Source of the DNA: Chloroflexota bacterium
GTDB taxonomy: Bacteria > Chloroflexota > Limnocylindria > Limnocylindrales > CSP1-4
Assembly (NCBI GenBank): GCA_025935925.1
Contig: JAICUI010000010.1
Location: forward strand, 6,307-70,306
Direction: 5' to 3'
Length of the DNA: 64,000 nucleotides
This document shows positions 11,818 through 24,956 of the stretch, piece by piece. The notes below the pieces were generated by a model, which was given only the letters and a program-made list of their open reading frames with translations, ran no database searches and was not told the DNA's origin. Each line of letters starts with the position of its first letter. Position 1 is the stretch's first letter. The position numbers were made by a program, and so were the translations under genes.

Positions 11818-13205
11818 GGGGCAGCCTCCTTTCGTGACCGCGACCGGCCAGGCGTCGGACCACGACCGGCATCCCCTGTGAGCGGAAGCGTAAGCCTGGC
11901 GACGGTCCCGCCGCCCTCGCGGGGCTCGACCGCGAGGTTGCCGCCGTGTTCCAGCGTGATCTCGTGGGCGACGAACAGCCCGAGTCCCAGGCCGGACACC
12001 GCATCGGTGGACACCGCGGCGAACGGCGTGAACAGCCGCGGCAGCGCCTCCGGCGCGATCCCGCGACCGCGGTCGGAGACCGTCACGATGGCCGAACCGT
12101 CGCGGTCGCGGAGCGAGACGTCGACGGCCTGCGACGACGCGCCGTGCGTGACCGCGTTGACGAGGAGGTTCGACAGGACCTGTCGCAGGCGCAGGCGGTC
12201 GCCCGCCACGACCATCCGGCGCGATCCGGCATGGAGCCGGAGCTCGACCTCGGGGTGCAGCTCGCGGACGTTGGCCACGGCGAGCGTGAGCAGCTCCCGG
12301 AGGTCGACCGGCGTGCGCTGCACGACCACCCGACCGTGGCGGATCAGCGACACGTCGAACAGCCGCGCGGCGAGTTCGCCGAGGTAGCGCGACTGCTCGA
12401 GCGCGCCCGCGAGGTAGCGCTGCGCGGCTTCGTCGAGGCCGTCGGCGCGCTCGACGAGCTGGAGGTAGTTGTGGAGCGCCGCGAGCGGCGTCTGCAGCTC
12501 GTGGCTGGCGGTGTCGATGAACCGCTCCTGGAGGTGGCGCAGGCTGCGCTCGGTGATGTCCCGGATGACGATGATCCCGCCCCAGTCGCCGCCCGGCCGA
12601 CCCGACGCCTCGTACCACCGCCGGTCACCGTCCTCGTCGACGCGCGTGAAGGACATCGCGAACGCCTCGCCGCGGGCGGCACGCGCCTGCGGCCACTCAT
12701 CCTCCGGGAGCCGCCGTCCCGAGCCGTCCTCGGGCACGAGCTGCCGGTCGGGGCCGAAGCTCGCCCGGTAGGCCCGGTTGCTCGCCACGATCCCGCCGTC
12801 CCGGTCCACGACCAGGACGGCCTCGGACATCCCGTCGAAGATGAGCGCCAGGCCCTCGCGCTCGGTCGCCTCGAGGTCGTCCTGCGGTTCCCGCGTCTCG
12901 CGGGCCTCCACGGCATGCTCGGTGATCACGATCGTGTGGTCGGACGGGACGACGTACACGGTCCCGGGCACGAGCCGCTCGCGCTGCTCGACCGCGGTCA
13001 CCCGCAGCGCCGTCCGGCCCGAGAGGATCTCCGCGAGGTCGGTCGCGCGCGCCGGCTCCGCCGGTTGCTCGTGGTGCGCGACCACGATCGACGCGGGGAA
13101 CGCGGCCTGCAGCGGTGCCAGCAGGTCCGACAGCGCGTCGATACCGCCCGCCGACGCACCGATCACCACGGCGACGCGGAATGCGGAGGCGGGGTCGTCG
13201 CTCAC
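11814..13205 (-). CDS. Cytoplasmic sensor histidine kinase: truncated CheB-like domain + PAS + HisKA + HATPase
   Basis: GASAGG..VVAHH at the N-terminus; PAS (IFDGMSEAVLVVD..RDITE); ASHELQTPL; NLLVNA, DRGRG, GLGLGL; GGAGGA before GTG. Confidence 0.88.
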   Translation of the reverse strand: MSDDPASAFRVAVVIGASAGGIDALSDLLAPLQAAFPASIVVAHHEQPAEPARATDLAEILSGRTALRVTAVEQRERLVPGTVYVVPSDHTIVITEHAVEARETREPQDDLEATEREGLALIFDGMSEAVLVVDRDGGIVASNRAYRASFGPDRQLVPEDGSGRRLPEDEWPQARAARGEAFAMSFTRVDEDGDRRWYEASGRPGGDWGGIIVIRDITERSLRHLQERFIDTASHELQTPLAALHNYLQLVERADGLDEAAQRYLAGALEQSRYLGELAARLFDVSLIRHGRVVVQRTPVDLRELLTLAVANVRELHPEVELRLHAGSRRMVVAGDRLRLRQVLSNLLVNAVTHGASSQAVDVSLRDRDGSAIVTVSDRGRGIAPEALPRLFTPFAAVSTDAVSGLGLGLFVAHEITLEHGGNLAVEPREGGGTVARLTLPLTGDAGRGPTPGRSRSRKEAAP

Positions 13206-13350
13206 GATTCCTCCGGTCGCGTGCCCAGATGCCCGGGCGCCGCCACGCACGCATCCCCCGCTGATCCGGCGGCCATTCTAGACCCGTGGGCGCGGACGGA
13301 GCCCGTGGCACCATGGCGGGGACGACGATGCCAGGCACGGAGGCCCACCG

Positions 13351-14304
13351 ATGACCGAGACCCGCCTCGGGGTCCTGCTATGGAACCAGGCCACGGGGTG
13401 GCCGGAGTACGAGGCCGCGGCGCGCAAGGTCGACGCGCTCGGCTACGACTCGTTGTGGTCGTGGGACCACCTGTACGCGATCTTCGGCGACCCGCACCAG
13501 GCGATCTTCGAGGGCTACACGACCCTCGCCGCGTGGGCGAAGGCGACGTCGAGGGTGAAGCTCGGGCTGCTCGTCGGGGCGAACACGTTCCGCAACCCGG
13601 GTGTCGTGGCCAAGGCGATCACGACGATCGACCACGTGAGCGGCGGGCGGGCGATCTGCGGCCTCGGCGGCGCCTGGATGGAACCCGAGCACACCGCGAC
13701 GGGGATCGAGTTCTTCAGCGGCTTCGGCGAGCGGCTCGACCGGCTGGACGAGGCGGTGGCGGCGCTGCGGGCCGCGCTGGACGGGGAGGCCGTCACGTCA
13801 CCGGAGGGCGGGGCGTACGCCTTCCAGGACTTCGTCGTGCTCCCGCGGCCCGTCCAGGCGCACCTGCCGATCATGATCGGCGGGTCGGGCGAGAAGAAGA
13901 CGCTGCGCACGGTGGCGAAGTACGCGGACCAGTGGAATGCGATGGGTGCGGTCGACATGCTGGCGCGCAAGGTCGAGGTGCTCAAGGGCCACTGCGACGC
14001 CGTGGGCCGCGACGTCTCGACGATCCAGTTCACCGCCGGCTGCAAGCCGATCATCCGGGACTCCGAGGCCGAGGCGCGTCGCGTCTGGGAGGCGCAGATG
14101 GCGCACAACCGGACGCCGATGGACGACGTCCTCGACGACGACACGTTCTGGGTCGGGACGCCGGATCTCATCGTCGAGCGGATGCTGGAGCGCAAGGCGC
14201 TCGGCTTCCACACGTTCCTCGCCGAGCTCGCGGCGCCGTTCGACGACGAGACGATCGAGCGCTGGATCGGCGAGGTGCTCCCGATGGTGGATCGCGCGTC
14301 GTAG
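13351..14304 (+). CDS. LLM-class (luciferase-like) flavin/F420-dependent oxidoreductase
   Basis: GYDSLWSWDH, FRNPG..AK..TIDHVSGGR, PIMIGGSGEKKTLR..AKYADQWN; GGAGG RBS. Confidence 0.92.
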   Translation: MTETRLGVLLWNQATGWPEYEAAARKVDALGYDSLWSWDHLYAIFGDPHQAIFEGYTTLAAWAKATSRVKLGLLVGANTFRNPGVVAKAITTIDHVSGGRAICGLGGAWMEPEHTATGIEFFSGFGERLDRLDEAVAALRAALDGEAVTSPEGGAYAFQDFVVLPRPVQAHLPIMIGGSGEKKTLRTVAKYADQWNAMGAVDMLARKVEVLKGHCDAVGRDVSTIQFTAGCKPIIRDSEAEARRVWEAQMAHNRTPMDDVLDDDTFWVGTPDLIVERMLERKALGFHTFLAELAAPFDDETIERWIGEVLPMVDRAS

Positions 14305-14400
14305 CGATCTCGCTCCGGAGTCCGATCGCGCGCGCATCATCCGGCGCCCGGTGCGGCGACCGCGGGGCGCCGCCCGTGCGACGCCCGCGGGGCGCCGTCG

Positions 14401-15015
14401 CTAGCCGACGCGGGCCTGAGCCGGCACCTGGTAGCCGTGCTCCGCGATCTCGCCGGCACGCTCGCGATACGCCTCCGTGGTCGGCGCCGTCCGCGCGCGG
14501 AAGCCTTCCACCAGCCGGTTGTACATCGAGAACGCCGACGCGATGAGGACCGCGAGCTGGACGTCCTGGTCGGTGGCGCCGGCATCGAGCGCGGCCTGGA
14601 CGTCCGCCGCGTCGAGCCCGCGCGGCGTCTCGGCGAGGGTCCGCGCGATGGACAGGAGTGCGCACATCTTCTCGTCGAGGCCGTCGGACGAGCCGGTCTT
14701 GACGATGTCGATCAGCGGCACGAGGTCGGTCGCGCCCTCGCGCTCGAGGAGCGCCGTCGCGAACGCGCCGTGCGAGTCCATGCAGAAGAAGCAGTCGTTG
14801 CTCGCGGACACGGCCGTCGCGAGCAGCTCGCGCTGGTCGCGGCGGAGCGTCGCGCCCGGGTAGTCGTTGACGAGCAGCTCGTCGGCGAGGCCGCGCAGGT
14901 GGAGCCCGAGCCCGGGCCGCAGGCGCATCGCGACGCCGATCCCCGGGACGTCGGGCAGGCTCCCGACGATGGGATCCTGCTCGGCGCGCTCCGCGCGCTC
15001 CTCGTCGCGTGCCAT
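14401..15015 (-). CDS. AhpD/carboxymuconolactone decarboxylase family peroxidase-related protein
   Basis: RELLATAVSASNDCFFCMDSH (E..CxxC..H) and FSMYNR motifs. Confidence 0.85.
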   Translation of the reverse strand: MARDEERAERAEQDPIVGSLPDVPGIGVAMRLRPGLGLHLRGLADELLVNDYPGATLRRDQRELLATAVSASNDCFFCMDSHGAFATALLEREGATDLVPLIDIVKTGSSDGLDEKMCALLSIARTLAETPRGLDAADVQAALDAGATDQDVQLAVLIASAFSMYNRLVEGFRARTAPTTEAYRERAGEIAEHGYQVPAQARVG

Positions 15016-15119
15016 CCGCTTCTCCTCGAGACCGGCCGTCGGGGTGCGTGGGAAGTATCATCCGGGACCGTCATGCCTGCAGCGCCCCTGTTCCCTCCCG
15101 CGCGCGACCGGCGTCACCC

Positions 15120-16727
15120 GTGACCGCGGCTCCGGCGACCCGCCCCGCGGGCCGCACGCTGACCCTCGGCGGGACGGCCTACCCGCTCGTCCTGCCCAAC
15201 ATCCGCGACCCGCGGCTCCACGTGGCGTCCGTGATCATCACGATCCACGTGCTCGGCCAGGTCGGGCTGCATTTCCATGTCAGCGTCCCCCAGATCCTCG
15301 CCGCGATCGCCGCATGCTGGGTGCTCGAGGTGGCGCTCACGTTCCGTTCGGCACGGATGTTCGTGTGGCCGGCGAGCGCGATGCTCACGGGCTCCGGCGT
15401 CGCGCTCATCCTGCGGGTCGTCGGGACGCCGGCCGATCAGCCCTGGTACACCGGCGACTGGTGGGTGTTCGCGGCGGTCGCGGCGTTCTCGCTCGCCACG
15501 AAGTACGTCATCAAGTACCGCGGCTCGCACGTGTTCAACCCGTCGAACGTGGGCCTCGTCATCGCCTTCATCGTCCTCGGCAGCTCGCGCGTCGAGCCGC
15601 TCGACTTCTGGTGGGGGCCGCTGAGCGTCTGGCTCGTCATCGCGTACGCGGTGATCCTCGTCGGCGGGACGCTGATCACGCGGCGGCTCAAGCTGCTCGC
15701 GCTCGCCGTGACGTTCTGGGTCGCGTTCGCCGCCGCGCAGGGTGTGCTCGCGGCGTCCGGCCACTGCATGACCGCCAACTGGGCGTTCGCCCCCGTGTGC
15801 GGCGCCGACTACTGGCGCGTCGTGGTGACGTCGCCGGAGGTGCTGATCTTCCTGTTCTTCATGATCACGGACCCGAAGACGACGCCCTCGGGACGCGTCG
15901 GGCGGGTGCTGTTCGGGCTGCTGGTCGCCGTCGCGAGCACGCTGCTGATGGCACCCCAGGTCGACGAGTTCGGCACCAAGGTCGCGCTGCTGTCGGGCCT
16001 CGTCCTGATGTGCGCGCTGCGGCCGCTGATCGACCGCGTGGTCCCGGAGCCGCGCTCCGCAGCCGACCGGCTGCGGCCGTTCGCGGCTCGCCTCGTCCCG
16101 TCGAGGATCACCGGCCCCGCCCGCGGGATCGCCGGGATTGCGCTCGCGGCCGTCGCGGTCGCCGTCGTCGGCAGCGGCATCGTCCTCGCCGGGTCGCCGG
16201 CGAGGGCAAGTCACGCCGCGGTGTCGTCCGAGGCGCTCACCCGGCCGCCGACGACCGTCAACACCGACACGCTGCCGGCGATCACGGTCGGCGACGACGT
16301 CCTGTCGTTCGACCACACGCTCGACGCGTCGGGGATGGCGGCCGTGGTCGTGACGCTTGCCCAGAACCTCGAGCTCGAGAACCGGGCACTGCTGACCCGC
16401 GACGCCGGCCTGCTGGCCGAGATCGACCACGGCGACCGGCTCGACGAGATGCGGGCGACGCTCGCGAGCGAGGCCGCGACGGGCACCACGCACGTCGAGC
16501 ACTACGCCTTCGACACCATCGACGCCCACCTCATCGTCCCGTTCGGCAAGCAGACGGGGGCGTCGCTCGGGCTCGACGCGAAGGGCACGGTGACCGAGGA
16601 GACCTACGACGCGAATGGCACGCTGCTGTCGACCCGCGCGGCGCCGTTCGCGCAGACGTTCGCGGTGCGCCGGGCGCTGGGCGACCGATGGCTCAACGTG
16701 GGCGTGCTTCCCTATGGGACGAGATAG
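15120..16727 (+). CDS. RnfD/NqrB-like (UnbU-like) polytopic membrane protein with C-terminal extracytoplasmic domain
   Basis: DPR, SAMLTG, KYVI..HVFNPSN, FFMITDPKTTP, many TM helices, soluble ~170-aa tail; start uncertain. Confidence 0.75.
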   Translation: MTAAPATRPAGRTLTLGGTAYPLVLPNIRDPRLHVASVIITIHVLGQVGLHFHVSVPQILAAIAACWVLEVALTFRSARMFVWPASAMLTGSGVALILRVVGTPADQPWYTGDWWVFAAVAAFSLATKYVIKYRGSHVFNPSNVGLVIAFIVLGSSRVEPLDFWWGPLSVWLVIAYAVILVGGTLITRRLKLLALAVTFWVAFAAAQGVLAASGHCMTANWAFAPVCGADYWRVVVTSPEVLIFLFFMITDPKTTPSGRVGRVLFGLLVAVASTLLMAPQVDEFGTKVALLSGLVLMCALRPLIDRVVPEPRSAADRLRPFAARLVPSRITGPARGIAGIALAAVAVAVVGSGIVLAGSPARASHAAVSSEALTRPPTTVNTDTLPAITVGDDVLSFDHTLDASGMAAVVVTLAQNLELENRALLTRDAGLLAEIDHGDRLDEMRATLASEAATGTTHVEHYAFDTIDAHLIVPFGKQTGASLGLDAKGTVTEETYDANGTLLSTRAAPFAQTFAVRRALGDRWLNVGVLPYGTR

Positions 16728-16743
16728 GGTCCCGGTGAAAAGG

Positions 16744-16773
16744 TTGCACGGGATCCGCGTCGTCGTGCATAGT
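16744..16773 (+). promoter_or_regulatory. Putative sigma70 promoter of the dap/lysA leader
   Basis: TTGCAC (16744-49), 18-nt spacer, CATAGT (16768-73). Confidence 0.55.
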
Positions 16774-16782
16774 GCGCGAGCC

Positions 16783-16863
16783 ATGTCGCACCACCACGCC
16801 GGCTTCGACGCAAAGCAGAAGCTCTGGCGGCCCTGCCGGAAGGCTCGGGCCCTGGGGCTCTGA
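16783..16863 (+). CDS. Putative Lys-sensing leader peptide (26 aa, MSHHHAGFDAKQKLWRPCRKARALGL)
   Basis: Short ORF between a promoter-like site and a terminator upstream of dapB; AAG codons at 16813, 16819 and 16840. Confidence 0.55.
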   Translation: MSHHHAGFDAKQKLWRPCRKARALGL

Positions 16864-16913
16864 CGGCGCGCGAGCGACGACCAGCGGAGCCTCCGGGACC
16901 GGAGGCGCCGAGG

Positions 16914-16956
16914 GGCCGCGGACACCACGAACGGTGCCGCGGCCTTTGTGATTCTT
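16914..16956 (+). terminator. Intrinsic terminator/attenuator upstream of dapB
   Basis: Stem GGCCGCGG(A)CACC / GGTGCCGCGGCC, loop ACGAAC, tail TTTGTGATTCTT. Confidence 0.7.
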
Positions 16957-17004
16957 CGGACCTCCTCCGGCCCCGCGGCCCGCACCCGCGGAGGACGTTC
17001 GAAG

Positions 17005-17778
17005 ATGCAGCTCCTGATCTACGGCCCGGGCCGGCTCGGCGGCGCGATCGCCGCGGCGGCCGTCGGGGCGGGCTGGCCGGCGCCGGGCATGCTCGGCCGC
17101 CCCGACGGCGCGTCGCGGCGGCTCGGTGCGCCCGGGGTGGACGTCGTCGTGGACGCGTCCGCCGGCGCGTCGGTCGCCGGGAACCTCGGGCACGCGCTCG
17201 ACGCCGGAAACCGGGCGTTCGTCCTCGCGGCGACCGGTTGGGATGGCGACCTGCCGCTCGTACGGTCGCTCCTCCTCGAGCATGGCGCGGCGGCCGTCGT
17301 GGCGCCCAACCTCTCGCTCGGCGCCGCGGTGTTCGGCCGCGTCGTCGAGGCGGCTGCCGGGTGGTATGCCCGGGCCGGCGGCTTCGAGCCGTCGATCGTC
17401 GAATGGCACCGTCGGGGGAAGGCCGACCGGCCGTCGGGCACCGCGCGGTCGCTGGCCCGGAGGATCGAGGCGGCGGACGGGCGATGGTCCACGGCCGCGG
17501 ACGACGGCCGCGACGGCCGCGACGGCACCCACGGCGACCGGCCGCGCCTCGAGGTCGCCGGGATCCGTGCCGGGGCTGCGCCAGGCACGCACCTCGTGAC
17601 GTTCGACGGCGCCGGCGAGTCCGTCGAGCTCCGCCTCACGGCCCGCGATCGGTCCGCGTACGCCGACGGCGCGCTCGCGGCGGCGCGCTGGCTCGTGGCC
17701 GAGCCGCGGGAGCCGGGCATCCATCCGTTCGACGCCGTCGTCGCCGGCCTCCTCGTCCCACCGGCCGTCGTGGCCTGA
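17005..17778 (+). CDS. dapB: 4-hydroxy-tetrahydrodipicolinate reductase
   Basis: GPGRLG Rossmann, ATGW, APNLSLG, EWHRRGKADRPSGTA, RAG..PGTH; first gene of the dap operon; GGAGG RBS. Confidence 0.8.
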   Translation: MQLLIYGPGRLGGAIAAAAVGAGWPAPGMLGRPDGASRRLGAPGVDVVVDASAGASVAGNLGHALDAGNRAFVLAATGWDGDLPLVRSLLLEHGAAAVVAPNLSLGAAVFGRVVEAAAGWYARAGGFEPSIVEWHRRGKADRPSGTARSLARRIEAADGRWSTAADDGRDGRDGTHGDRPRLEVAGIRAGAAPGTHLVTFDGAGESVELRLTARDRSAYADGALAAARWLVAEPREPGIHPFDAVVAGLLVPPAVVA

Positions 17779-17804
17779 ATCCCGATCGAGCAAGGAGCAT
17801 CACC

Positions 17805-18797
17805 ATGTCCTCCGCCCCGCTCCATCTCCGCGGCGCGCTCACCGCGCTCGTCACGCCGTTCGCGGCCGACCGGTCGCTCGACGAGGCCGCCTATCGTCGC
17901 CTGTGCTCCTGGCAGGTCATGGCCGGGACGGACGGCCTCGTCCCGGTCGGCACGACCGGCGAGTCCCCAACCCTGACCCAGGCCGAGCGCGAGCGATGCA
18001 TCGAGATCGCCGTCTCGGTCGTCGCGGACCGCGTCGCCGCCGGCGCACCGCGGATCCCCATCGTCGCGGGCACCGGGACGAACGACACGCGCGCGTCGAT
18101 CGAGGCGACCCGCCGTGCGGCGGCCATCGGCGCCGATGCGGCGCTGATCGTCACGCCGTACTACAACAAGCCCGACCAGCGGATGCTCGAGGCGCACTTC
18201 CGCGCGGTGGCCGACGAGGGCGGGCTGCCGATCGTCGTGTACACCGTCCCGGGACGAACGGGCGCCAACGTGGAGGCCGACACGTTCCTCCGGCTGGCCG
18301 AGCATCCGCGAGTGATTGCCGTGAAGGAGGCGAGCGCGAACCTGGAGCAGATCGCCGTGATCTGTCGGGACCGCCCGGCCGGCGTGTCGGTGCTGTCCGG
18401 CGACGACGCCGCGACCCTCCCGATCCTCGCGCTCGGCGGCGACGGCGTCGTATCCGTGGCGAGCAACCAGGTTCCGGGCGAGGTGTCGGCGATGGTCGAC
18501 GCGTGGCGGTTCGGCGACGTGGGCGAGGCGCGGCGGATCCACGAGCGGCTGCTGCCGCTGTTCCGGGCGAACTTCCAGGGCGCCCCGAACCCGGTTCCGG
18601 CGAAGGCCGCGATGCTCGCGATGGGCCTCCTCGACCGGGACGCGGTTCGTGCGCCGCTGCTTCCGCTCGACGATGCGCCGCGCGACCGGCTCGTCGCGAT
18701 CCTGCGCTCGCTCGGGCTGGTCGACGGCGGGGGCCGGGAGCGGTCGGGCGCGACGGTGGCCGCCACGCGCGACCTCGGCGCCGGGGCCGCGGCGTGA
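17805..18797 (+). CDS. dapA: 4-hydroxy-tetrahydrodipicolinate synthase
   Basis: ALVTPF, GTTGESPTL, TPYYNKP, YTVPGRTG, Schiff-base KEAS, LSGDD, NPVPAK. Confidence 0.95.
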   Translation: MSSAPLHLRGALTALVTPFAADRSLDEAAYRRLCSWQVMAGTDGLVPVGTTGESPTLTQAERERCIEIAVSVVADRVAAGAPRIPIVAGTGTNDTRASIEATRRAAAIGADAALIVTPYYNKPDQRMLEAHFRAVADEGGLPIVVYTVPGRTGANVEADTFLRLAEHPRVIAVKEASANLEQIAVICRDRPAGVSVLSGDDAATLPILALGGDGVVSVASNQVPGEVSAMVDAWRFGDVGEARRIHERLLPLFRANFQGAPNPVPAKAAMLAMGLLDRDAVRAPLLPLDDAPRDRLVAILRSLGLVDGGGRERSGATVAATRDLGAGAAA

Positions 18798-19684
18798 GGG
18801 CCGTCGACGGTCGAACGGAGGCGCGCACGGCGCCGCCGGCGCGGCGCGACGTTGCGCCGGTCCGGGCGCCGGATCGCGCGCCGGTCCGGGCGCCGGTCCG
18901 GGCGCCGGCCAGGGCGCCGGACCTTGCCCCGATCCTCGCGGACCTCGACGCCGGGACGCGTCGTGCCGCCGTGCCCGACCCCACGGCGCCCGGCGGGTGG
19001 CGCGCGGACCCAGAGGTGAAGGCCGGGATCCTTGCCTGTTTCCGCGATCGATCGACGTCGGCATGGGACCTCGACGGCGCGCTCCAATTCCGCGACCGCG
19101 TGGGCGTGCCGCCGAAGGCGCTCCTGGCCGGTGGATGGCGGATCGTGCCCGGCGGCACGTCCGTGCGCGCGGGGGCGTACCTCGGGTCCGGCGTCGTCGT
19201 CATGCCGCCGTCGTTCGTCAACGTCGGCGCGTGGATCGGCGAGGACACCATGGTCGACTCGCACGTGCTCGTGGGCTCGTGTGCCCAGGTCGGCGCGCGC
19301 GTCCACCTGTCCGCCGGCGTCACCATCGGCGGAGTGCTCGAGCCGGCCGGCGCGCGCCCGGTCATCATCGAGGACGACGCGTTCGTGGGTGCGGGGTCGT
19401 CGCTGCTGGAGGGCGTGCTGGTGGGTCGCGGCGCGGTGATCGGGGCGGGCGTCGTCCTCACCGCGACGTCCCGGCTGTACGACCTCGTCCGTGAGCGGGT
19501 GCTCGCCGGGACCGCGGACGCGCCGCTCGCGGTGCCGGCGGGCGCGGTGGTCGTGCCGGGAACGCGGGCGGTGAGCGGCGCGTTCGCGGCGGCGCACGGG
19601 CTCGGCGCGAGCGTCGCGCTCCTGGTCAAGGACCGCGATGCGGGCACCGACGCCCGGCTCGTGCTCGAGGAGGCGCTGCGATGA
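18794..19684 (+). CDS. dapD: Tetrahydrodipicolinate N-succinyl/acyltransferase
   Basis: RIVPGG, MPPSFVNVGA, MVDSHVLVGSCAQVG, IGGVLEP..ARPVIIED, ends LEEALR; GTGA overlap with dapA. Confidence 0.9.
   Translation: MRAVDGRTEARTAPPARRDVAPVRAPDRAPVRAPVRAPARAPDLAPILADLDAGTRRAAVPDPTAPGGWRADPEVKAGILACFRDRSTSAWDLDGALQFRDRVGVPPKALLAGGWRIVPGGTSVRAGAYLGSGVVVMPPSFVNVGAWIGEDTMVDSHVLVGSCAQVGARVHLSAGVTIGGVLEPAGARPVIIEDDAFVGAGSSLLEGVLVGRGAVIGAGVVLTATSRLYDLVRERVLAGTADAPLAVPAGAVVVPGTRAVSGAFAAAHGLGASVALLVKDRDAGTDARLVLEEALR
18854..18925 (+). repeat. Six tandem 12-nt units (GCGCCGGnnnnn) encoding APVR-APDR-APVR-APVR-APAR-APDL in the dapD N-terminus
   Basis: Read directly: gcgccggtccgg occurs three times plus three variants, in register. 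Confidence 0.85.
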
Positions 19685-21036
19685 GCATGCTCCGTGAACC
19701 CGGCCCGCAACCGGGCAGGGCGGCGGACGGGACGCGGCGCGGCCGGCCGCCCGCCCGTGACGAGATCCTGCGCAACGGGCGCCTCGGCGGGATGGACCCG
19801 GCGGAGCTCGCGGCGCGGTTCGGGACGCCGTTCTACGCCTACGACCTGGACGTCGTGACACGCCAGGTCGCGGGTCTCCAGGCGGTGCTGCCGGTGCAGG
19901 CGGACCTCGCCTTCGCGGTCAAGGCGAACCCCAACCTGTCCGTGCTGCGGCACCTCGCCGGGGCCGGGCTCGGCGCGGACGTCGCATCGGCCGGCGAGCT
20001 CGGCCAGGCGCTGCGTGCCGGGTTCGCGCCGGACCGCATCGTGTTCACCGGTCCCGGGAAGCGTGACGAGGAGCTCCGCGCCGCCGTCGAGGCCGGCGTC
20101 CGCGTCGTGACGGTCGAGTCGCCGGGCGAGCTGCGGCGCCTCGCCGCGATCGCGGAGGCACTCGGACGTCGCCAGCCGGTCCTGCTCCGTGCCGCCGTCT
20201 CGGAGGCGGCGCGCCTCGAGCGCGTACGACTGGTCGGGGACGATGGCGCCGGGAAGTTCGGGATGGACGCCGCGGACCTGCGGGTCGCCGCGGCGGAGGC
20301 GGTCGCATCAGCATGGCTCGAGCCGATCGGCGTGCACGCGTTTGGCGCGTCGAACCTGCTCGACGCCGCGGCCCTTGCCGCGCACGCCGAAGCGACGGTC
20401 GAGGCCGCGCTGGACCTCGCGGCCGAGGCGGGCTTCGCGCCGCGGCTGGTTGACGTCGGCGGTGGGCTCGGCATCCCGTACGACACGGGCGATGACCCGC
20501 TCGACGCCAGGCGGCTCGGCGCGCGGCTCCAGGCGCTGGCCGACCGGCTGGCCACGAGCCCGGCGGCGCGCGGCGCCCGGATCCTGCTCGAGCCGGGTCG
20601 GTTCCTCGTCGGCGCGGCCGGCGCCTACGTCGCGCGCGTCGTCGACCGCAAGACCGTGGGTGGCCGCCACGTCGTCGTCCTGGACGGCGGGATCCACCAC
20701 GTGCTGCGCCCCGCGCTCGTCGGCCAGGAGCACCGGTTGCGGGTCCTCACCGGTCCGGCGGCGACGCGCACCGCCGCGAACGCGCAGCGCTTTCCGGTCA
20801 CCGTCGCCGGCCCCTTGTGCTCCGGGCTCGACGTGTTCGCCGAGGCCGCGGTCATGGCACCCCCGGATATCGGCGACCTCGTCGCGGTGCTCGACGTCGG
20901 GGCGTACGGGGCGACCGAATCGATGCCGTTCTTCCTGTCCCACCCGTTGCCGCCGGAGATCGCGCTCCGCGGCGGGGCGGCCTGGGTCGCGCGGCCGAGG
21001 ATCGACCCGGAGGTCTGGCTCGGCTGGCAGACGTAG
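19681..21036 (+). CDS. lysA: Diaminopimelate decarboxylase
   Basis: GTPFYAYD, PLP lysine FAVKAN, DVAS.GE, GKFG, DVGGG, EPGR, GPLC, GAYG; last gene of the dap operon. Confidence 0.88.
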   Translation: MSMLREPGPQPGRAADGTRRGRPPARDEILRNGRLGGMDPAELAARFGTPFYAYDLDVVTRQVAGLQAVLPVQADLAFAVKANPNLSVLRHLAGAGLGADVASAGELGQALRAGFAPDRIVFTGPGKRDEELRAAVEAGVRVVTVESPGELRRLAAIAEALGRRQPVLLRAAVSEAARLERVRLVGDDGAGKFGMDAADLRVAAAEAVASAWLEPIGVHAFGASNLLDAAALAAHAEATVEAALDLAAEAGFAPRLVDVGGGLGIPYDTGDDPLDARRLGARLQALADRLATSPAARGARILLEPGRFLVGAAGAYVARVVDRKTVGGRHVVVLDGGIHHVLRPALVGQEHRLRVLTGPAATRTAANAQRFPVTVAGPLCSGLDVFAEAAVMAPPDIGDLVAVLDVGAYGATESMPFFLSHPLPPEIALRGGAAWVARPRIDPEVWLGWQT

Positions 21037-21116
21037 CGGGGCTCACCCCGCGAACGGCGGCCGCGCGCGGGGCGAGGGCCGATCGCGCGCGCGAGCCGCG
21101 CCGAACGCGCGCGACC

Positions 21117-21314
21117 CTACATCGAGGGCTGCGACGAGGAGTCGTACTCCTTCGGGTGGTCGACCTGGTCGCGCTCGCGGGTTCGATCGAAGATCTGGAA
21201 CGTCTCGTCGACCGACTTCCCGTTCTCCCGCGCGGCCGCCTGCAGGTCCTCGTACGTGATGTTGTTCTGGCCCATCTCCTTGTGGGCATCCATGCAGCCA
21301 CAGGTCAGACACAT
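21117..21314 (-). CDS. Small hypothetical protein (65 aa) with N-terminal CxxCGC..H motif
   Basis: MCLTCGCMDAHKEMG..; GAGGAG RBS 8 nt upstream; GC3-rich codons. Confidence 0.75.
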   Translation of the reverse strand: MCLTCGCMDAHKEMGQNNITYEDLQAAARENGKSVDETFQIFDRTRERDQVDHPKEYDSSSQPSM

Positions 21315-21468
21315 GGCGTTGGCTCCTCGTGCGTGAGTGGACGTCCTGACCGTGCGCCCGGCGGCGACGACCACGTCACGACAAGCCGCGAGACCGTGTC
21401 GCAGGCGGCTTGCAGTCCGCCGCCGCTGCCGCCCGCCGGCCAGCAACGCGTTCGTCAGCGTCGCTTCG

Positions 21469-22551
21469 TCACGCCCTGGCGCCAAGCCGGAACTCGGGCC
21501 GCCGACCGAGGAGGACCCACGGCACGACCAGCGGCGCCACGAGCCGGATGAGCACGTCGGCGAGGATCGCAGGCGCCGGGATGTCGAACGACGGGTACGC
21601 GAGCAGGACGGCGAGCAGCGGGGTCATCGTCGGCATCGCCATCGTCTGGTAGTGGAACTGCGTCGCGGGCCACAGCGCGGGCACCGCGAGCCACCCGGCC
21701 GCCCGCCGGTCGCGCACGGCGAGCAGCAGCAGCGCCACGAGGAGCGCCACGAACAGCGGCCAGCGCCCGAAGGCCGAGAAGCCGCCGAACGCCTCGCGCA
21801 GGAGGCGCCCGTTGATGTCGGCGGAGTCGCCGAGCCACGCCCGCCACAGGTCGAACGCGAGGACGATGGTCACCGCATTCGCCGCGATCGCCAGCGCGAT
21901 GTGCCGCCACCGTGCCTCGCCGAAGAGCGGCACGAACGCATAGACCTTGAGCATCGTCGCGAGCGCCGACGCCGGACCCCAGCCGACGAGCAGCAGACCG
22001 ACGACGAGGATCTGCGGATTGGCCGAGAACAGCCCCTCGACGAGCGGCGGGAACAGCAGCCAGTACCAGTCGAGCTTGAGCCGCCACACGGTGAACGCGG
22101 CGGCGGCAAGCCCGGCGCTGACCGCGAGCAGCGTGAACAGCTCTTCGGGCAGGACGGTGAACGGCGCGTAGACGAGCGTCGTGACCGGCGTGCCCGCGTA
22201 GTGGAACGTCGTCCCGAGGACGTTGACGCCGGCCTCCCACGGGTCGCCGCCGTGGACCCACGCCCACGCGCCGCGGTAGTAGATCCGCGAGTCGATGCCG
22301 ATGGGGAACGTGCGGTCGACGAAGAACGACACGCGCTGCCAGCTGTTCCACGCGAACCACAGCGCGAGCCCGATGGGCCAGACGAACCGCGCCAGCGCGT
22401 CGAGCTGCCGCGCCCACTCGCGGCCCGGCGCCGCGAGCCACGTGTCGAGCGTCTCGCGGATGCCCCACGGGTCCCGCCGTCGCAGCTCGGCCACCGCCCG
22501 GGGATCGCCCGGCGCGAACAGCCGGTCGATCAGCCTGCGCAGCGCATCCAC
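21469..22551 (-). CDS. GT-C fold membrane glycosyltransferase (GT87/DUF2029-like)
   Basis: DSRIYYRGAWAW..GGDPW..FHYAGTP followed by multiple TM helices and LKVY. Confidence 0.65.
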   Translation of the reverse strand: MDALRRLIDRLFAPGDPRAVAELRRRDPWGIRETLDTWLAAPGREWARQLDALARFVWPIGLALWFAWNSWQRVSFFVDRTFPIGIDSRIYYRGAWAWVHGGDPWEAGVNVLGTTFHYAGTPVTTLVYAPFTVLPEELFTLLAVSAGLAAAAFTVWRLKLDWYWLLFPPLVEGLFSANPQILVVGLLLVGWGPASALATMLKVYAFVPLFGEARWRHIALAIAANAVTIVLAFDLWRAWLGDSADINGRLLREAFGGFSAFGRWPLFVALLVALLLLAVRDRRAAGWLAVPALWPATQFHYQTMAMPTMTPLLAVLLAYPSFDIPAPAILADVLIRLVAPLVVPWVLLGRRPEFRLGARA

Positions 22552-22598
22552 CCGCCGATGATCCCCAACCGGACGGCGCGTCGCAACCGGCCGGCGCG

Positions 22599-24956
22599 CT
22601 ACTCCACGACCGACGGGGTCACGAACCGCGTCCGCGAAGCGACCTCGACGACGGGCCCGGTCAGCGTGATCGTCGTGGCCAGCGCCAGGTCGGCGGAGGA
22701 GGTGCCGACCTGGATGGCCACGTCGCCGGGTTCGACGACCCGGCGGTAGTCGATGCCGGAGAACGCCAGCTGCTCCGCGGCGAGCTCGAACCGGACGCGG
22801 CGGCACTCCCCCGGCCGGAGCGCGACGCGCCGGAACCCGCGCAGCTCGAGGACCGGGCGCACCACCGAGGCCTCGAGGTCGCGGACGTACAGCTGCACGA
22901 CGGCGTCCCCGGCCCGCGCCCCGGTGTTCGTGACCTCGACGGAGACGCTCACCGTGCCGCCGTCGGTGGGCACGCGCGCCTGGTCGACCGCGAGGTTCGC
23001 GAGCGCGAAGGTCGTGTACGAGAGCCCGTGCCCGAACGGCCACAGGGGCGTGGTCGGCCCGTCCACGTACGGGCCCTTGGGGTTGGAGCGACCGCCCGTC
23101 GGGTGATGGCGGTACGTGACCGGGACCTGGCCGACGGTCCTCGGAAACGACACCGGCAGCCTGCCGCCCGGGACGACGTCCCCGGCGAGGACCTCGGCGA
23201 TCGCCTGCGGGCCGGCATCGCCCGGCACCCAGGCGAGCACGACGGCGGCGCAGTGCTCCGCGGCCCAGGCGAGCTCCAGCGGCCGGCCGCTCACGACCAC
23301 GAGGACGCACGGCGTCCCGGTCGCGACGACCCGCTCCAGCAGCTCCTGCTGGCGGCCGAGGAAGCCGAGCGTCGATCGGTCGCGGAACTCGCCGGTCGTG
23401 GCGTCGTCGGTCAGCCCCGAGCGCTCGCCGAGGACGACGATCGCGACGTCGGCGGCGCCCGCGGCCTCGACGGCGGAGGCGAGCTCCTCGTCGCTGCCAT
23501 CCCTGAGGCCCGACCCGCGCGCGTAGGTCACGACGTCCTCGCCGAACCGCTCGCGGAGCCCGGTCAGGATCGTCGGTGCGCCGGCGAGGTCCGGGATGGG
23601 CAGCGGATCGGTGAGCGGGAACCCGAAGGTGTCGTCGCGGAGCCGGCCCTCGTTGAGCGTCTCGAGATGGAGCACGTGCCCGTAGTCGCCGATGAGGTCG
23701 CGGGCGCTGTCGGCGAGCGGCCCGACGACCGCGATCCGACCCGGCGTCCGGCCGAGGGGCAGCGTGCCGTCGTTCGCGGCAAGCACGATCGACCGCCGGA
23801 CGAGCTCGAGGGCCGCCGCGCGCTCGGTGGCCTCGAGCGCGGTCACGGCGTCGTCCGATGGCGCGTCGACATACGGCCGCTCGAAGAGTCCCAGCCGCAG
23901 CTTGAGCCGGAGCACCCGCTCGACGGCGGCATCGACGTCCGCCTCGCGGATCCGTCCGTCGGCGATGGCGGCGAGCAACGGCGACCCGTACGCGGACGTG
24001 CTCGGCAGCTCCGCGTCGACGCCCGCGCGGAGCGCCATGCCGGCCGCCACTCCCAGGTCGCCGGTGAGCCGGTGCGCGGTCGACAGCATCTCGACGGCCA
24101 TGTAGTCCGACGCGACGATGCCGTCGAACGCCCAGCGCCGGCGCAGCACGTCGTCGAGCAGCGCCGCGGAGGCGTGGCACGGCACGCCGTCGACGTCGCA
24201 GTACGCCGGCATGATCGAGGCGATGCGGCCCTGTCGCACGGCGGCCTCGAACGGCGCCAGCTGTTCGTCCTCGAGCTCCCGCCGGCCCGCGTGCACCGGC
24301 GCCTGGTTGAGCCCGCCCTCCGCGAGGCCGTGGCCGACCATGTGCTTCGCGGTCGCCGCCACGCCGTGCGCGAGCGACGGGCCCTGGATCGCCTCGACAT
24401 AGGCGAGGCCCATGACCGTGGCGAGGTATGGATCCTCGCCGTACGTCTCCTCGATGCGGCCCCAGCGGGGGTCGCGGCCGGTGTCGAGCACCGGTGCGAG
24501 CGCGTGACGCCCGCCCATCAGCAGCATCCGGCGGCGGAGCGTGTCGGCCATCGCGCTGACCGAGTCGGGGTCGAACGACGCCGCGGCACCGATCGACTGC
24601 TGGAACACGGGTGCGCCCGCGGCAAGCACGCCGTGGAGGGTCTCCTCGTGGAGGATCGCCGGGATCCCCAGGCGCGTCTCCTTGACGAGGAACCGCTGGA
24701 TCTCGTTGCCCAGCGCCGCCGCCGTCGCCAGCCCGGCGTTCGACGCGCCGGCCACCCGGCTGACGTGCCCGATCCCCTGCCCCAGCAGCCCGCGCGCCCG
24801 CGACGGGTCGAGCGACCCGCGACCGACGAGCTCGAACGACCACGCGGAGCCCAGCTGCGCCACCTTCTCGCCGAGCGTCATCCGCGCGAGCAGGTCGGCC
24901 GCGCGCACCTCCACGGGAAGCGACGGGTCGCGGTAGCGCTCCTCGGTCGTCGCCAT
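22599..24956 (-). CDS. GH3 beta-xylosidase/beta-glucosidase (BxlA-like) with Fn3-like tail
   Basis: MTLGEKVAQL, HEETLHG, RDPRWGRIEETYGEDP, KH, nucleophile SDY, FGHGLSYT. Confidence 0.93.
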   Translation of the reverse strand: MATTEERYRDPSLPVEVRAADLLARMTLGEKVAQLGSAWSFELVGRGSLDPSRARGLLGQGIGHVSRVAGASNAGLATAAALGNEIQRFLVKETRLGIPAILHEETLHGVLAAGAPVFQQSIGAAASFDPDSVSAMADTLRRRMLLMGGRHALAPVLDTGRDPRWGRIEETYGEDPYLATVMGLAYVEAIQGPSLAHGVAATAKHMVGHGLAEGGLNQAPVHAGRRELEDEQLAPFEAAVRQGRIASIMPAYCDVDGVPCHASAALLDDVLRRRWAFDGIVASDYMAVEMLSTAHRLTGDLGVAAGMALRAGVDAELPSTSAYGSPLLAAIADGRIREADVDAAVERVLRLKLRLGLFERPYVDAPSDDAVTALEATERAAALELVRRSIVLAANDGTLPLGRTPGRIAVVGPLADSARDLIGDYGHVLHLETLNEGRLRDDTFGFPLTDPLPIPDLAGAPTILTGLRERFGEDVVTYARGSGLRDGSDEELASAVEAAGAADVAIVVLGERSGLTDDATTGEFRDRSTLGFLGRQQELLERVVATGTPCVLVVVSGRPLELAWAAEHCAAVVLAWVPGDAGPQAIAEVLAGDVVPGGRLPVSFPRTVGQVPVTYRHHPTGGRSNPKGPYVDGPTTPLWPFGHGLSYTTFALANLAVDQARVPTDGGTVSVSVEVTNTGARAGDAVVQLYVRDLEASVVRPVLELRGFRRVALRPGECRRVRFELAAEQLAFSGIDYRRVVEPGDVAIQVGTSSADLALATTITLTGPVVEVASRTRFVTPSVVE

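Follow-up and report, generated by a model that had tools for sequence, protein, structure and literature searches.

A probable lysine-codon leader-peptide attenuator upstream of dapB-dapA-dapD-lysA in uncultured soil Chloroflexota, with a methionine-codon sister leader

The DNA studied here comes from an uncultured soil Chloroflexota (Limnocylindria) with a genome of 73% G+C, of which a stretch of 64,000 nucleotides (nt), hereafter the window, was analysed. Positions 16728-17004 of the window form the gap between an RnfD-like open reading frame (ORF) and a lysine operon, dapB-dapA-dapD-lysA. This gap holds an element of about 175 nt, the dapB leader, which a preliminary description, made from the letters alone, had proposed to be a lysine-sensing leader-peptide attenuator. 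Here we explore this leader and its relatives in order to weigh that proposal. The features of the leader are the following, hairpins being those of the minimum free energy (MFE) fold:

16744-16773, plus strand: candidate promoter with -35 TTGCAC (16744-49), an 18-nt spacer and -10 CATAGT (16768-73), followed by 9 nt up to the ATG at 16783
16783-16863, plus strand: near-leaderless leader ORF (upstream ORF, uORF) of 26 codons plus TGA, encoding MSHHHAGFDAKQKLWRPCRKARALGL
16813-16821, plus strand: putative sensor codons AAG-CAG-AAG (K11, Q12, K13), with codon 11 at 16813-15 and codon 13 at 16819-21
16816-16862, plus strand: hairpin P1, the putative anti-antiterminator, with a 5' arm that includes segment 1b GCTCTGG (16821-16827) and with inner loop GGAA
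16827-16834, plus strand: segment 1a GCGGCCCT, complementary to 16912/13-16919, with either 2a (in P1) or the terminator base (in the antiterminator) as alternative partner
16847-16861, plus strand: 3' arm of P1, consisting of 2a GGGCC (16847-51) and 2b CTGGGGCTCT (16852-61), overlapping the final uORF codons and the stop
16864-16884, plus strand: linker CGGCGCGCGAGCGACGACCAG with a small hairpin, near-invariant within the genus and of varying length across the family
16885-16910, plus strand: hairpin P2, with core GCCTCCG / CGGAGGC and loop GGAC, the 5' arm of which can pair with 2b instead
16912-16956, plus strand: intrinsic terminator, a stem-loop (16912-16944) with U-rich tail TTTGTGATTCTT (16945-16956)
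16958-16999, plus strand: hairpin masking the Shine-Dalgarno (SD) sequence of dapB by pairing of CCTCC (16962-66) with GGAGGA (16990-95), kept in the genus alignment

The promoter, the uORF, the Lys codons and the hairpin with its tail are all read at the positions where the preliminary description had put them. The MFE fold of 16770-17010 (-131.3 kcal/mol, z = -3.83, with none of 200 shuffles equally stable) contains, in this order, P1 in the 3' half of the uORF, P2, the terminator and the SD-masking hairpin; folded alone, the terminator hairpin segment reaches -27.2 kcal/mol. An equivalent of the promoter, TTGnnn followed after 17-19 nt by nAnnnT, was found in 55 of 62 related leaders, ending 4-10 nt (mostly 6-9 nt) upstream of the start codon, and the seven misses come from the start codon chosen in the analysis. 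Since the distance from -10 to start leaves no room for an SD sequence, the uORF is probably leaderless or nearly so, and transcription presumably starts at its ATG or a few bases from it. DNA upstream of the -35 is unconserved in the genus alignment, hence the terminator is not merely the end of the upstream gene. The dapB leaders of relatives from many genera (e.g. L004, L009, L012-L016, L080-L088) carry TGAATAT-, TATGCA- or ATGCAT-like words, partly palindromic, 20-60 nt upstream of the -35; these words are absent from the window and could represent an operator or a divergent promoter.

Distribution of the leader was determined by means of protein searches, a covariance model (R1) and a degenerate DNA pattern. 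Among 41 relatives, DapB was identified in 20 of 24 genomes of the same genus and in none of the 16 from a sister family whose genomes measure 1.1 Mb. These 20 genus genomes supply 21 aligned copies, every one of which has the leader before a DapB-like gene, and in this genus alignment the leader core exceeds dapB itself in nucleotide conservation. Screening of the order with R1 retrieved the leader in 66 of 151 genomes, with 65 of 108 in family f1 (20 of the 27 genera sampled) and 0 of 42 in the small-genome sister family. In a phylum-wide sample six of 151 genomes were retrieved, every one within the class, and a class-wide sample gave 28/44 for f1, 3/50 for f3, 1/49 (weak) for f46, 0/6 for f2 and 0/1 for f47. 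In family f3, three of 41 genomes have DapB of the window's type; R1 retrieved the leader in two of these, and the third has a leader that was read by eye. The DNA pattern, applied to one genome per species, yielded at least 119 stretches. Among the matches listed, the true ones are from metagenome-assembled genomes whose titles read Chloroflexota, Chloroflexia or Candidatus Limnocylindria/Limnocylindrales, along with a few otherwise labelled; matches in Streptomyces, Micromonospora, Bradyrhizobium, Mycolicibacterium and others fall within long ORFs without a short frame and were discarded as chance. Pooled loci amount to at least 124 distinct segments, namely 119 Lys-type leaders, three Met-type leaders (see below) and two chance matches, where Lys-type means at least two K in the five codons before the spacer or first hairpin, a definition by which all 119 were grouped. 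A DapB-like gene lies directly downstream on the same strand in 115 of the 119 Lys-type leaders among those listed, and three of the four misses have at most 504 nt of downstream DNA.

The short frame is conserved along with the RNA. An ATG in the frame of the sensor is present within 46 nt upstream in 115 of the 119 leaders, as compared to 17 and 9 for the other two frames. In the genus the uORF ATG is invariant (21/21 copies) and length differences at the N-terminus are whole codons; the sequence pattern is that of a frame that is probably translated. In the 97 leaders that were aligned to R1 using a stricter threshold (alignment A4, also the basis of the structural comparison below; an earlier alignment, A3, contained spurious low-score rows and was excluded from the counts), AAG occupies the first and the third sensor position at 96-100% per base, and the middle codon varies. 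Peptides show the sensor variants KKK, KQK, KRK, KPK, KAK, KSK, KPKSK or RKK, and the window's uORF has a third AAG at codon 20. In 695 long ORFs of this genome, 1.69% of residues are Lys, encoded 7121 times by AAG and 101 times by AAA, and random 25-mers of genome composition would contain K-x-K in 0.66% of cases. Both the scarcity of Lys and the conservation of uORF, frame and Lys codons, which the preliminary description had respectively remarked upon and proposed to look for, thus hold, the latter across the family. The HHH run at codons 3-5, for which it had offered no explanation, is not conserved in relatives and hence carries no signal.

The weak second matches of R1 have the same layout with ATG-TGT-ATG as sensor, and their next gene is metY, encoding O-acetylhomoserine sulfhydrylase (TIGR01326, 669 bits vs a cut-off of 495). 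Two leaders with Met codons are located as follows:

~111130-111300 of another contig of this genome (C10), plus strand: Met-type leader L031/L100 (about 1475-1660 in locus numbering) with uORF MTHTSVSWLMCMRGRPRRSETGAELSPR, sensor ATG-TGT-ATG, hairpins and terminator, and metY about 100 nt further on
~1299408-1299544 of G142:C3, minus strand: M-A-M leader L099 (MKPHGSRMAMPEAPPGSVGV), preceding a threonine-synthase-family gene (TIGR00260, 257 bits), which may encode a ThrC-like enzyme of the Met pathway

A protein search across the family found the MetY gene in 27 of 61 genomes. ATG-NNN-ATG with the same 5-nt spacer occurs in 18 of the 23 distinct metY loci, three of the others extending past the 330 nt examined and two having no leader. 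These 18 Met-type leaders have 1a GCGGCCCC (GCGGCTC in one) and terminator base GGGGCCGC. One Met-type leader peptide reads MRMAMGMQMMQMPWRPRRAEDGV, opening with MRMAMGMQMMQM, and the leader of L107 has eight Met in 23 residues. Sensor codons follow the regulated pathway, since Lys codons precede the lysine operon and Met codons precede methionine genes. The two types are diverged paralogues that differ elsewhere as well, so the codons are not their sole difference. An Rfam scan of the metY leader at E<=1 yielded a chance-level match only (mir-6827). Searches for the same scaffold elsewhere in this genome gave just the dapB leader and the weak metY leader with R1, and dapB only with a strict regular expression; a crude terminator scan of non-coding DNA upstream of ORFs gave 22 candidates, with convincing leader peptides only at dapB and metY. 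A conserved motif, ACGCGACGGGTAGCCGCCGA, lies right after the Met-type terminator in most metY loci (e.g. L100, ~1585-1605) and matches nothing in Rfam, and a spacer of about 100-200 nt separates it from metY.

Lys and Met leaders have W-R-P and R-E-A-R in common and the stop codon lies within P1, as might also be seen if the nascent peptide, with its conserved ...WRPCREAR..., arrested the ribosome on free lysine or methionine in a TnaC- or SpeFL-like manner, codon supply not being sensed; systems of this kind are described in the part of PMC12360218 drawn on here. Codon conservation after the sensor speaks against it. Third positions there are conserved like the other two (0.95 vs 0.94 and 0.91), as opposed to dapB (0.69 vs 0.94 and 0.97), and radical replacements of residues are tolerated (C to S, R or G; K to E or T; L to Q), from which it follows that selection after the sensor acts on the RNA and not on the peptide. 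Such arrest would moreover have an inverted logic, in that arrest at high lysine would need to repress. We regard an arrest peptide as very improbable.

The RNA was compared in two mutually exclusive states. The OFF structure, consisting of P1, the linker hairpin, P2 and the terminator, is paired in 94.5% of cells, and 27 of its 43 pairs are changed on both sides, which none of 500 shuffles reaches and for which a slid control gives 12 pairs at most. Pairing in P1 (helices 1-2) amounts to 91.0% and 99.0%, and both sides have changed in 9 of 17 pairs; for linker helices 3-4 these values are 97.9% and 82.2% with 4 of 5, for P2 (helix 5) 93.1% with 6 of 10 and for the terminator (helix 6) 97.6% with 8 of 11. 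The covarying stems that the preliminary description had predicted to be worth seeking hence exist in the OFF fold. T tracts in the terminators of relatives are mostly stronger than that of the window, and the linker hairpin might, speculatively, serve as a pause site. In the ON structure, 1a is joined to the terminator base, 2a to the P2 loop and 2b to the P2 5' arm. It is paired in 91.8% of cells, as compared to at most 59.8% when slid, and includes 21 doubly changed cells, again reached by 0/500 shuffles; for its 2b:P2 5' arm helix, pairing is 86.3% and both sides have changed in 5 of 10 pairs.

The helix of 1a with the 5' base of the terminator (1a:T5; GCGGCCC at 16827-33 with GGGCCGC at 16913-19) is paired in 96.9% of cells of the 97 leaders. 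Because it hardly varies, alignment-wide counts neither prove nor disprove it. Segment 1a and the 5' base of the terminator are invariant, and G-U wobble is seen in their OFF partners (2a and the 3' arm of the terminator), which matches the prediction of a dual constraint. In L089, 1a reads GCGACCC with matching changes in 2a (GGGTC) and in the terminator base (GGGTCGC); in L250, which is from another family, 1a GCGGTCC is matched by terminator base GGACCGC. At position 8 of the helix, Lys leaders have U:G or U:A where Met leaders have C:G, and the gap from the last sensor codon to 1a is always 5 nt, in Lys and Met types alike. The preliminary description had listed this pairing together with two further ones. 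All three pairs of complementary segments can be read, but only GCGGCCC:GGGCCGC is well conserved as an antiterminator: CGGCGC:GCGCCG is paired in 73%, has a centre pair that is non-standard in 62 of the 83 sequences not gapped there and exists at the genus level only, and GGCCCT:GGGGCC can pair (88-98% of cells) without any covariation. A pairing of the P2 3' arm with the terminator 5' arm, like the 4:5 pairing of the his leader, was also considered and rejected, as by eye there is no usable complementarity.

These comparative tests support the core of the original proposal, and on this comparative and computational basis we conclude that the element is probably a leader-peptide transcription attenuator mediated by the ribosome, in which the supply of charged tRNA-Lys is sensed and read-through into dapB-dapA-dapD-lysA is gated accordingly. 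The stalling of the ribosome, the order of the folding events and the response to lysine are envisaged as follows. With no ribosome on the leader, the RNA would form P1, the linker hairpin, P2 and the terminator, such that transcription would stop at the U tract 16945-56. Under shortage of Lys-tRNA, the ribosome would wait while AAG codon 11 or 13 occupies its A site, and its leading edge would then mask 1b, the outer 5' strand of P1, and leave free 1a, which starts 5 nt beyond the last sensor codon. The freed 3' strand of P1, 2b, could next pair with the 5' arm of P2, and 1a with the initial 7-8 bases of the terminator stem, such that the terminator could not close beside the U tract and RNA polymerase would continue.

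This scheme was modelled by folding 120 leaders up to the terminator 3' arm, which was excluded, with a ribosome footprint masked from -12 to +11 or +14 relative to the first P-site base. With no ribosome the pairing probability P(1a:T5) is 0.33, with 37 of 120 leaders above 0.5. Placing the last sensor codon in the A site, with the +11 edge, raises it to 0.86 (106/120); for the first sensor codon in that site and the +14 edge it is 0.78 (97/120). The model supports that stalling on the sensor would free and favour the antiterminator, with an outcome that depends on the footprint assumed; antitermination upon a stall at K11/K13, as had been put forward for the window, is favoured in it.

A number of results weigh against the attenuator. 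P(1a:T5) is only 0.17 (20/120 leaders above 0.5) if the A site holds the last sensor codon and the edge is +14, and with that codon in the P site it is 0.14 (13/120) and 0.00 (0/120) for +11 and +14. A ribosome on the stop codon, which had been proposed to permit termination, gives 0.73 (90/120) and 0.75 (95/120) for the same edges; because of these values the folding model fails to separate a Lys-stalled from a terminating ribosome, that part of the original mechanism is not confirmed by it, and the order of events is assumed. We suspect that steric exclusion of a helix closing around the ribosome might explain the stop-codon result. Upon addition of the terminator 3' arm the gain is -16.7 kcal/mol without a ribosome and -12.9 with a stalled one, and the MFE fold retains the terminator in 111 and 85 of 120 leaders, respectively. 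Equilibrium folding was hence rejected as the switch: since the terminator is favoured at equilibrium in every ribosome state, the switch would have to be kinetic, as it is in classical attenuators. As regards the alignment, A4 favours the OFF fold because it was aligned to the OFF structure, 6 of 20 pairs of the ON structure are changed on both sides, which is within the shuffles (76/500), and 1a:T5 is near-invariant, its covariation consisting of two lineages judged by eye. Sensor codons number two to three only, below most classical leaders, and one relative, L252, has K-x-x-x-K. A consensus scanner called no promoter in 14000-23000 and placed its sole terminator call elsewhere; the -35 agrees with TTGACA at just three of six positions, and the terminator stem is bulged.

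Traces of expression were sought in public sequencing runs. Twenty match part of the stretch, six of which are soil metatranscriptomes that share about one fifth of the sampled words (16600-17400). Four of these soil metatranscriptomes, from four studies, have contigs of 90-97% likeness over 16736-17023, 16792-17022, 16802-16965 and 16799-16965, and in these four the shared words correspond to the conserved leader. Three of these RNA contigs begin at 16792-16802, which is 9-19 nt past the predicted transcript start, contigs being unable to show ends. The contigs give a weak hint that the leader is transcribed; they stem from relatives and may derive from DNA, which is a further point against. 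These RNA-library contigs cover the conserved leader and little else of dapB.

The SD-masking hairpin raises the matter of translational control. The 3' arm of P2 has a GGAGG (16902-06) that can compete for the same CCTCC that masks the dapB SD, and with the downstream RNA included in the fold, the MFE structure pairs P2 CCGGAGG with CCTCCGG instead, thereby freeing the SD. This exchange suggests a second, translational layer of control. It might even be the principal one, the position of the ribosome on the uORF setting the masking of the SD (CCTCC:GGAGG vs P2 GGAGG:CCTCC) and the U-tract hairpin being a constitutive, leaky terminator. The conservation of the masking hairpin in the genus and a terminator that is thermodynamically favoured in every modelled state would fit such control, and a precedent exists in the leaderless Cys short ORFs (sORFs) of mycobacteria, going by the part of Canestrari et al. 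2020 (bioRxiv 10.1101/834739) used here. However, the masking hairpin is not universal in other genera: genus g5 keeps the sensor, P1, P2 and the terminator without it and without the P2 GGAGG. A purely translational model also has no need for 1a and the terminator base, which are co-conserved and covary. Mainly translational control thus seems unlikely to us.

Known RNA classes were assessed by an Rfam scan of 16000-17600 (4227 families, E<=10), which produced three chance-level matches only, with E from 0.45 to 4.2 (CcsR1, mir-278, sot2652). The lysine riboswitch (RF00168) and the T-box (RF00230) were rejected, as neither matched in that scan, in agreement with what had been predicted for them at the outset; for the T-box, the in-frame ATG and stop moreover favour translated codons over a specifier loop. 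The terminator could still be controlled by an undescribed riboswitch or by the site of an RNA-binding regulator, with the short ORF incidental or modulatory. Nucleotide conservation of the leader is unusually high, above that of dapB and extending in the genus to unpaired linker bases, and the stalled ribosome moves the equilibrium by about 4 kcal/mol only; both would suit a metabolite or protein switch. Against this stand, besides the lack of an Rfam family, the frame bias of the ATG (115 vs 17 and 9), the whole-codon indels, a linker that is unconserved in sequence and length outside the genus and the change of the sensor from AAG to ATG precisely where the operon goes from lysine to methionine synthesis. 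We consider a switch of this kind quite unlikely, and the attenuator remains our preferred explanation.

The classical enterobacterial attenuators are trpL, hisL, pheL, thrL, leuL and ilvL. The dapB leader resembles them in having a short ORF with codons for the end product, mutually exclusive hairpins and a terminator before the first biosynthetic gene, with the position of the ribosome proposed to choose the fold. It differs from them in having no sequence relation, in being probably leaderless or nearly so instead of SD-led, in its two to three sensor codons (K-x-K), in its presumed lysine specificity and in its host, an uncultured Chloroflexota. Its antiterminator is also unlike the simple 2:3 pair of the classical case, being made of 1a, from the 5' arm of the first hairpin, with the terminator base and of 2b with P2. 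Attenuation by hisL is described in the part of PMC12360218 drawn on here.

In the polycysteine leaderless sORFs of mycobacteria, stalled ribosomes unmask the next gene's ribosome binding site, according to the part of bioRxiv 10.1101/834739 used here. Likewise, a short ORF that is probably leaderless or nearly so comes first in the dapB leader, codons of the regulated amino acid would be the sensor, and several loci follow one principle (the 'ribulon' of that source). In contrast, the U-tract terminator and conserved antiterminator of the dapB leader point to transcriptional control, possibly plus SD masking, and the Limnocylindria leaders would sense Lys and Met, not Cys, the amino acid of the mycobacterial cases in that part of the source. 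L-box (RF00168) and T-box (RF00230) elements also act on amino-acid genes through a choice between terminator and antiterminator in the 5' leader; unlike these, the dapB leader matches neither model and has a conserved translated frame with sensor codons instead.

A leader peptide with tandem Lys codons is reported, in work of Tsubouchi et al. (J Biol Chem 2005), to attenuate the lysine gene cluster of Thermus thermophilus. That case reportedly concerns the alpha-aminoadipate and not the diaminopimelate (DAP) pathway, belongs to another phylum and has no known sequence relation to the dapB leader. If so, the initial statement that no Lys-codon attenuator had been characterised was probably too strong. 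A literature search, with most subscription journals outside its scope, gave nothing relevant on lysine-codon, dapB, Chloroflexi or methionine-codon leader peptides, which is not proof of absence. Most likely, the dapB leader attenuates a DAP-pathway operon of Limnocylindria-type Chloroflexota in a Lys-specific manner, is not homologous to the known cases and has a Met-specific sister, and the type of mechanism is already known.

The genes on either side of the leader were identified as follows:

15009-16727: RnfD-like ORF, the upstream neighbour (Pfam NQR2_RnfD_RnfE, 7.3e-08)
17005-17778, plus strand: dapB-like gene, 4-hydroxy-tetrahydrodipicolinate reductase (Pfam DapB_C, 8.4e-24; TIGR00036, 102 bits, under the cut-off of 122)
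17805-18797, plus strand: dapA (TIGR00674, 301 bits vs a cut-off of 206), start chosen with AAGGAG upstream
18794-19684, plus strand: dapD, N-succinyltransferase (NF008808, 252 bits vs a cut-off of 204), its GTG start overlapping the dapA stop
19681-21036, plus strand: lysA-like diaminopimelate decarboxylase gene (Pfam Orn_Arg_deC_N, 1.3e-44; TIGR01048, 267 bits, under the cut-off of 297.9), its ATG overlapping the dapD stop

By NCBIfam, dapA and dapD score above the cut-offs, and for dapB and lysA the families named are the best matches, yet below them. The window's DapB (17005-17778) is atypical in that Pfam matches its C-terminal domain only, with no DapB_N. Two long ORFs of the window, at 11946-14546 and 21337-22749 (plus strand; 866 and 470 aa), match no Pfam family at E<=0.001, and the second has no NCBIfam match either; both may be spurious in a genome of 73% G+C.

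A further and more tentative idea concerns the Lys and Met leaders jointly. They might represent a modular chassis, in which one RNA scaffold (1a GCGGCCC, P1, P2 and base GGGCCGC) is reused within one class for at least two amino acids, with specificity set solely by two codons located 5 nt before 1a, where the helicase edge of the waiting ribosome would abut the antiterminator strand. We hold this to be possible but rather doubtful. If true, it would be a minimal two-codon sensor, with maybe the first leader-peptide attenuator based on methionine codons among its cases, and read-through of the terminator may be coupled to unmasking of the dapB SD via the P2 GGAGG / CCTCC exchange.

Control of lysine synthesis is usually ascribed to the L-box riboswitch or to protein regulators. 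A conserved Lys-codon leader peptide at a DAP operon would add a further solution to this problem and would extend classical attenuation to an uncultured lineage of soil Chloroflexota. At least some 120 small ORFs that lack annotation, of the kind that gene callers miss, are flagged by the leaders collected here. As a small element with its specificity apparently residing in two codons, the leader may be a test case for the minimal number and spacing of sensor codons. The occurrence of Lys and Met versions on one scaffold would amount to a natural codon swap, and thereby to unusually direct comparative evidence for codon-based sensing.

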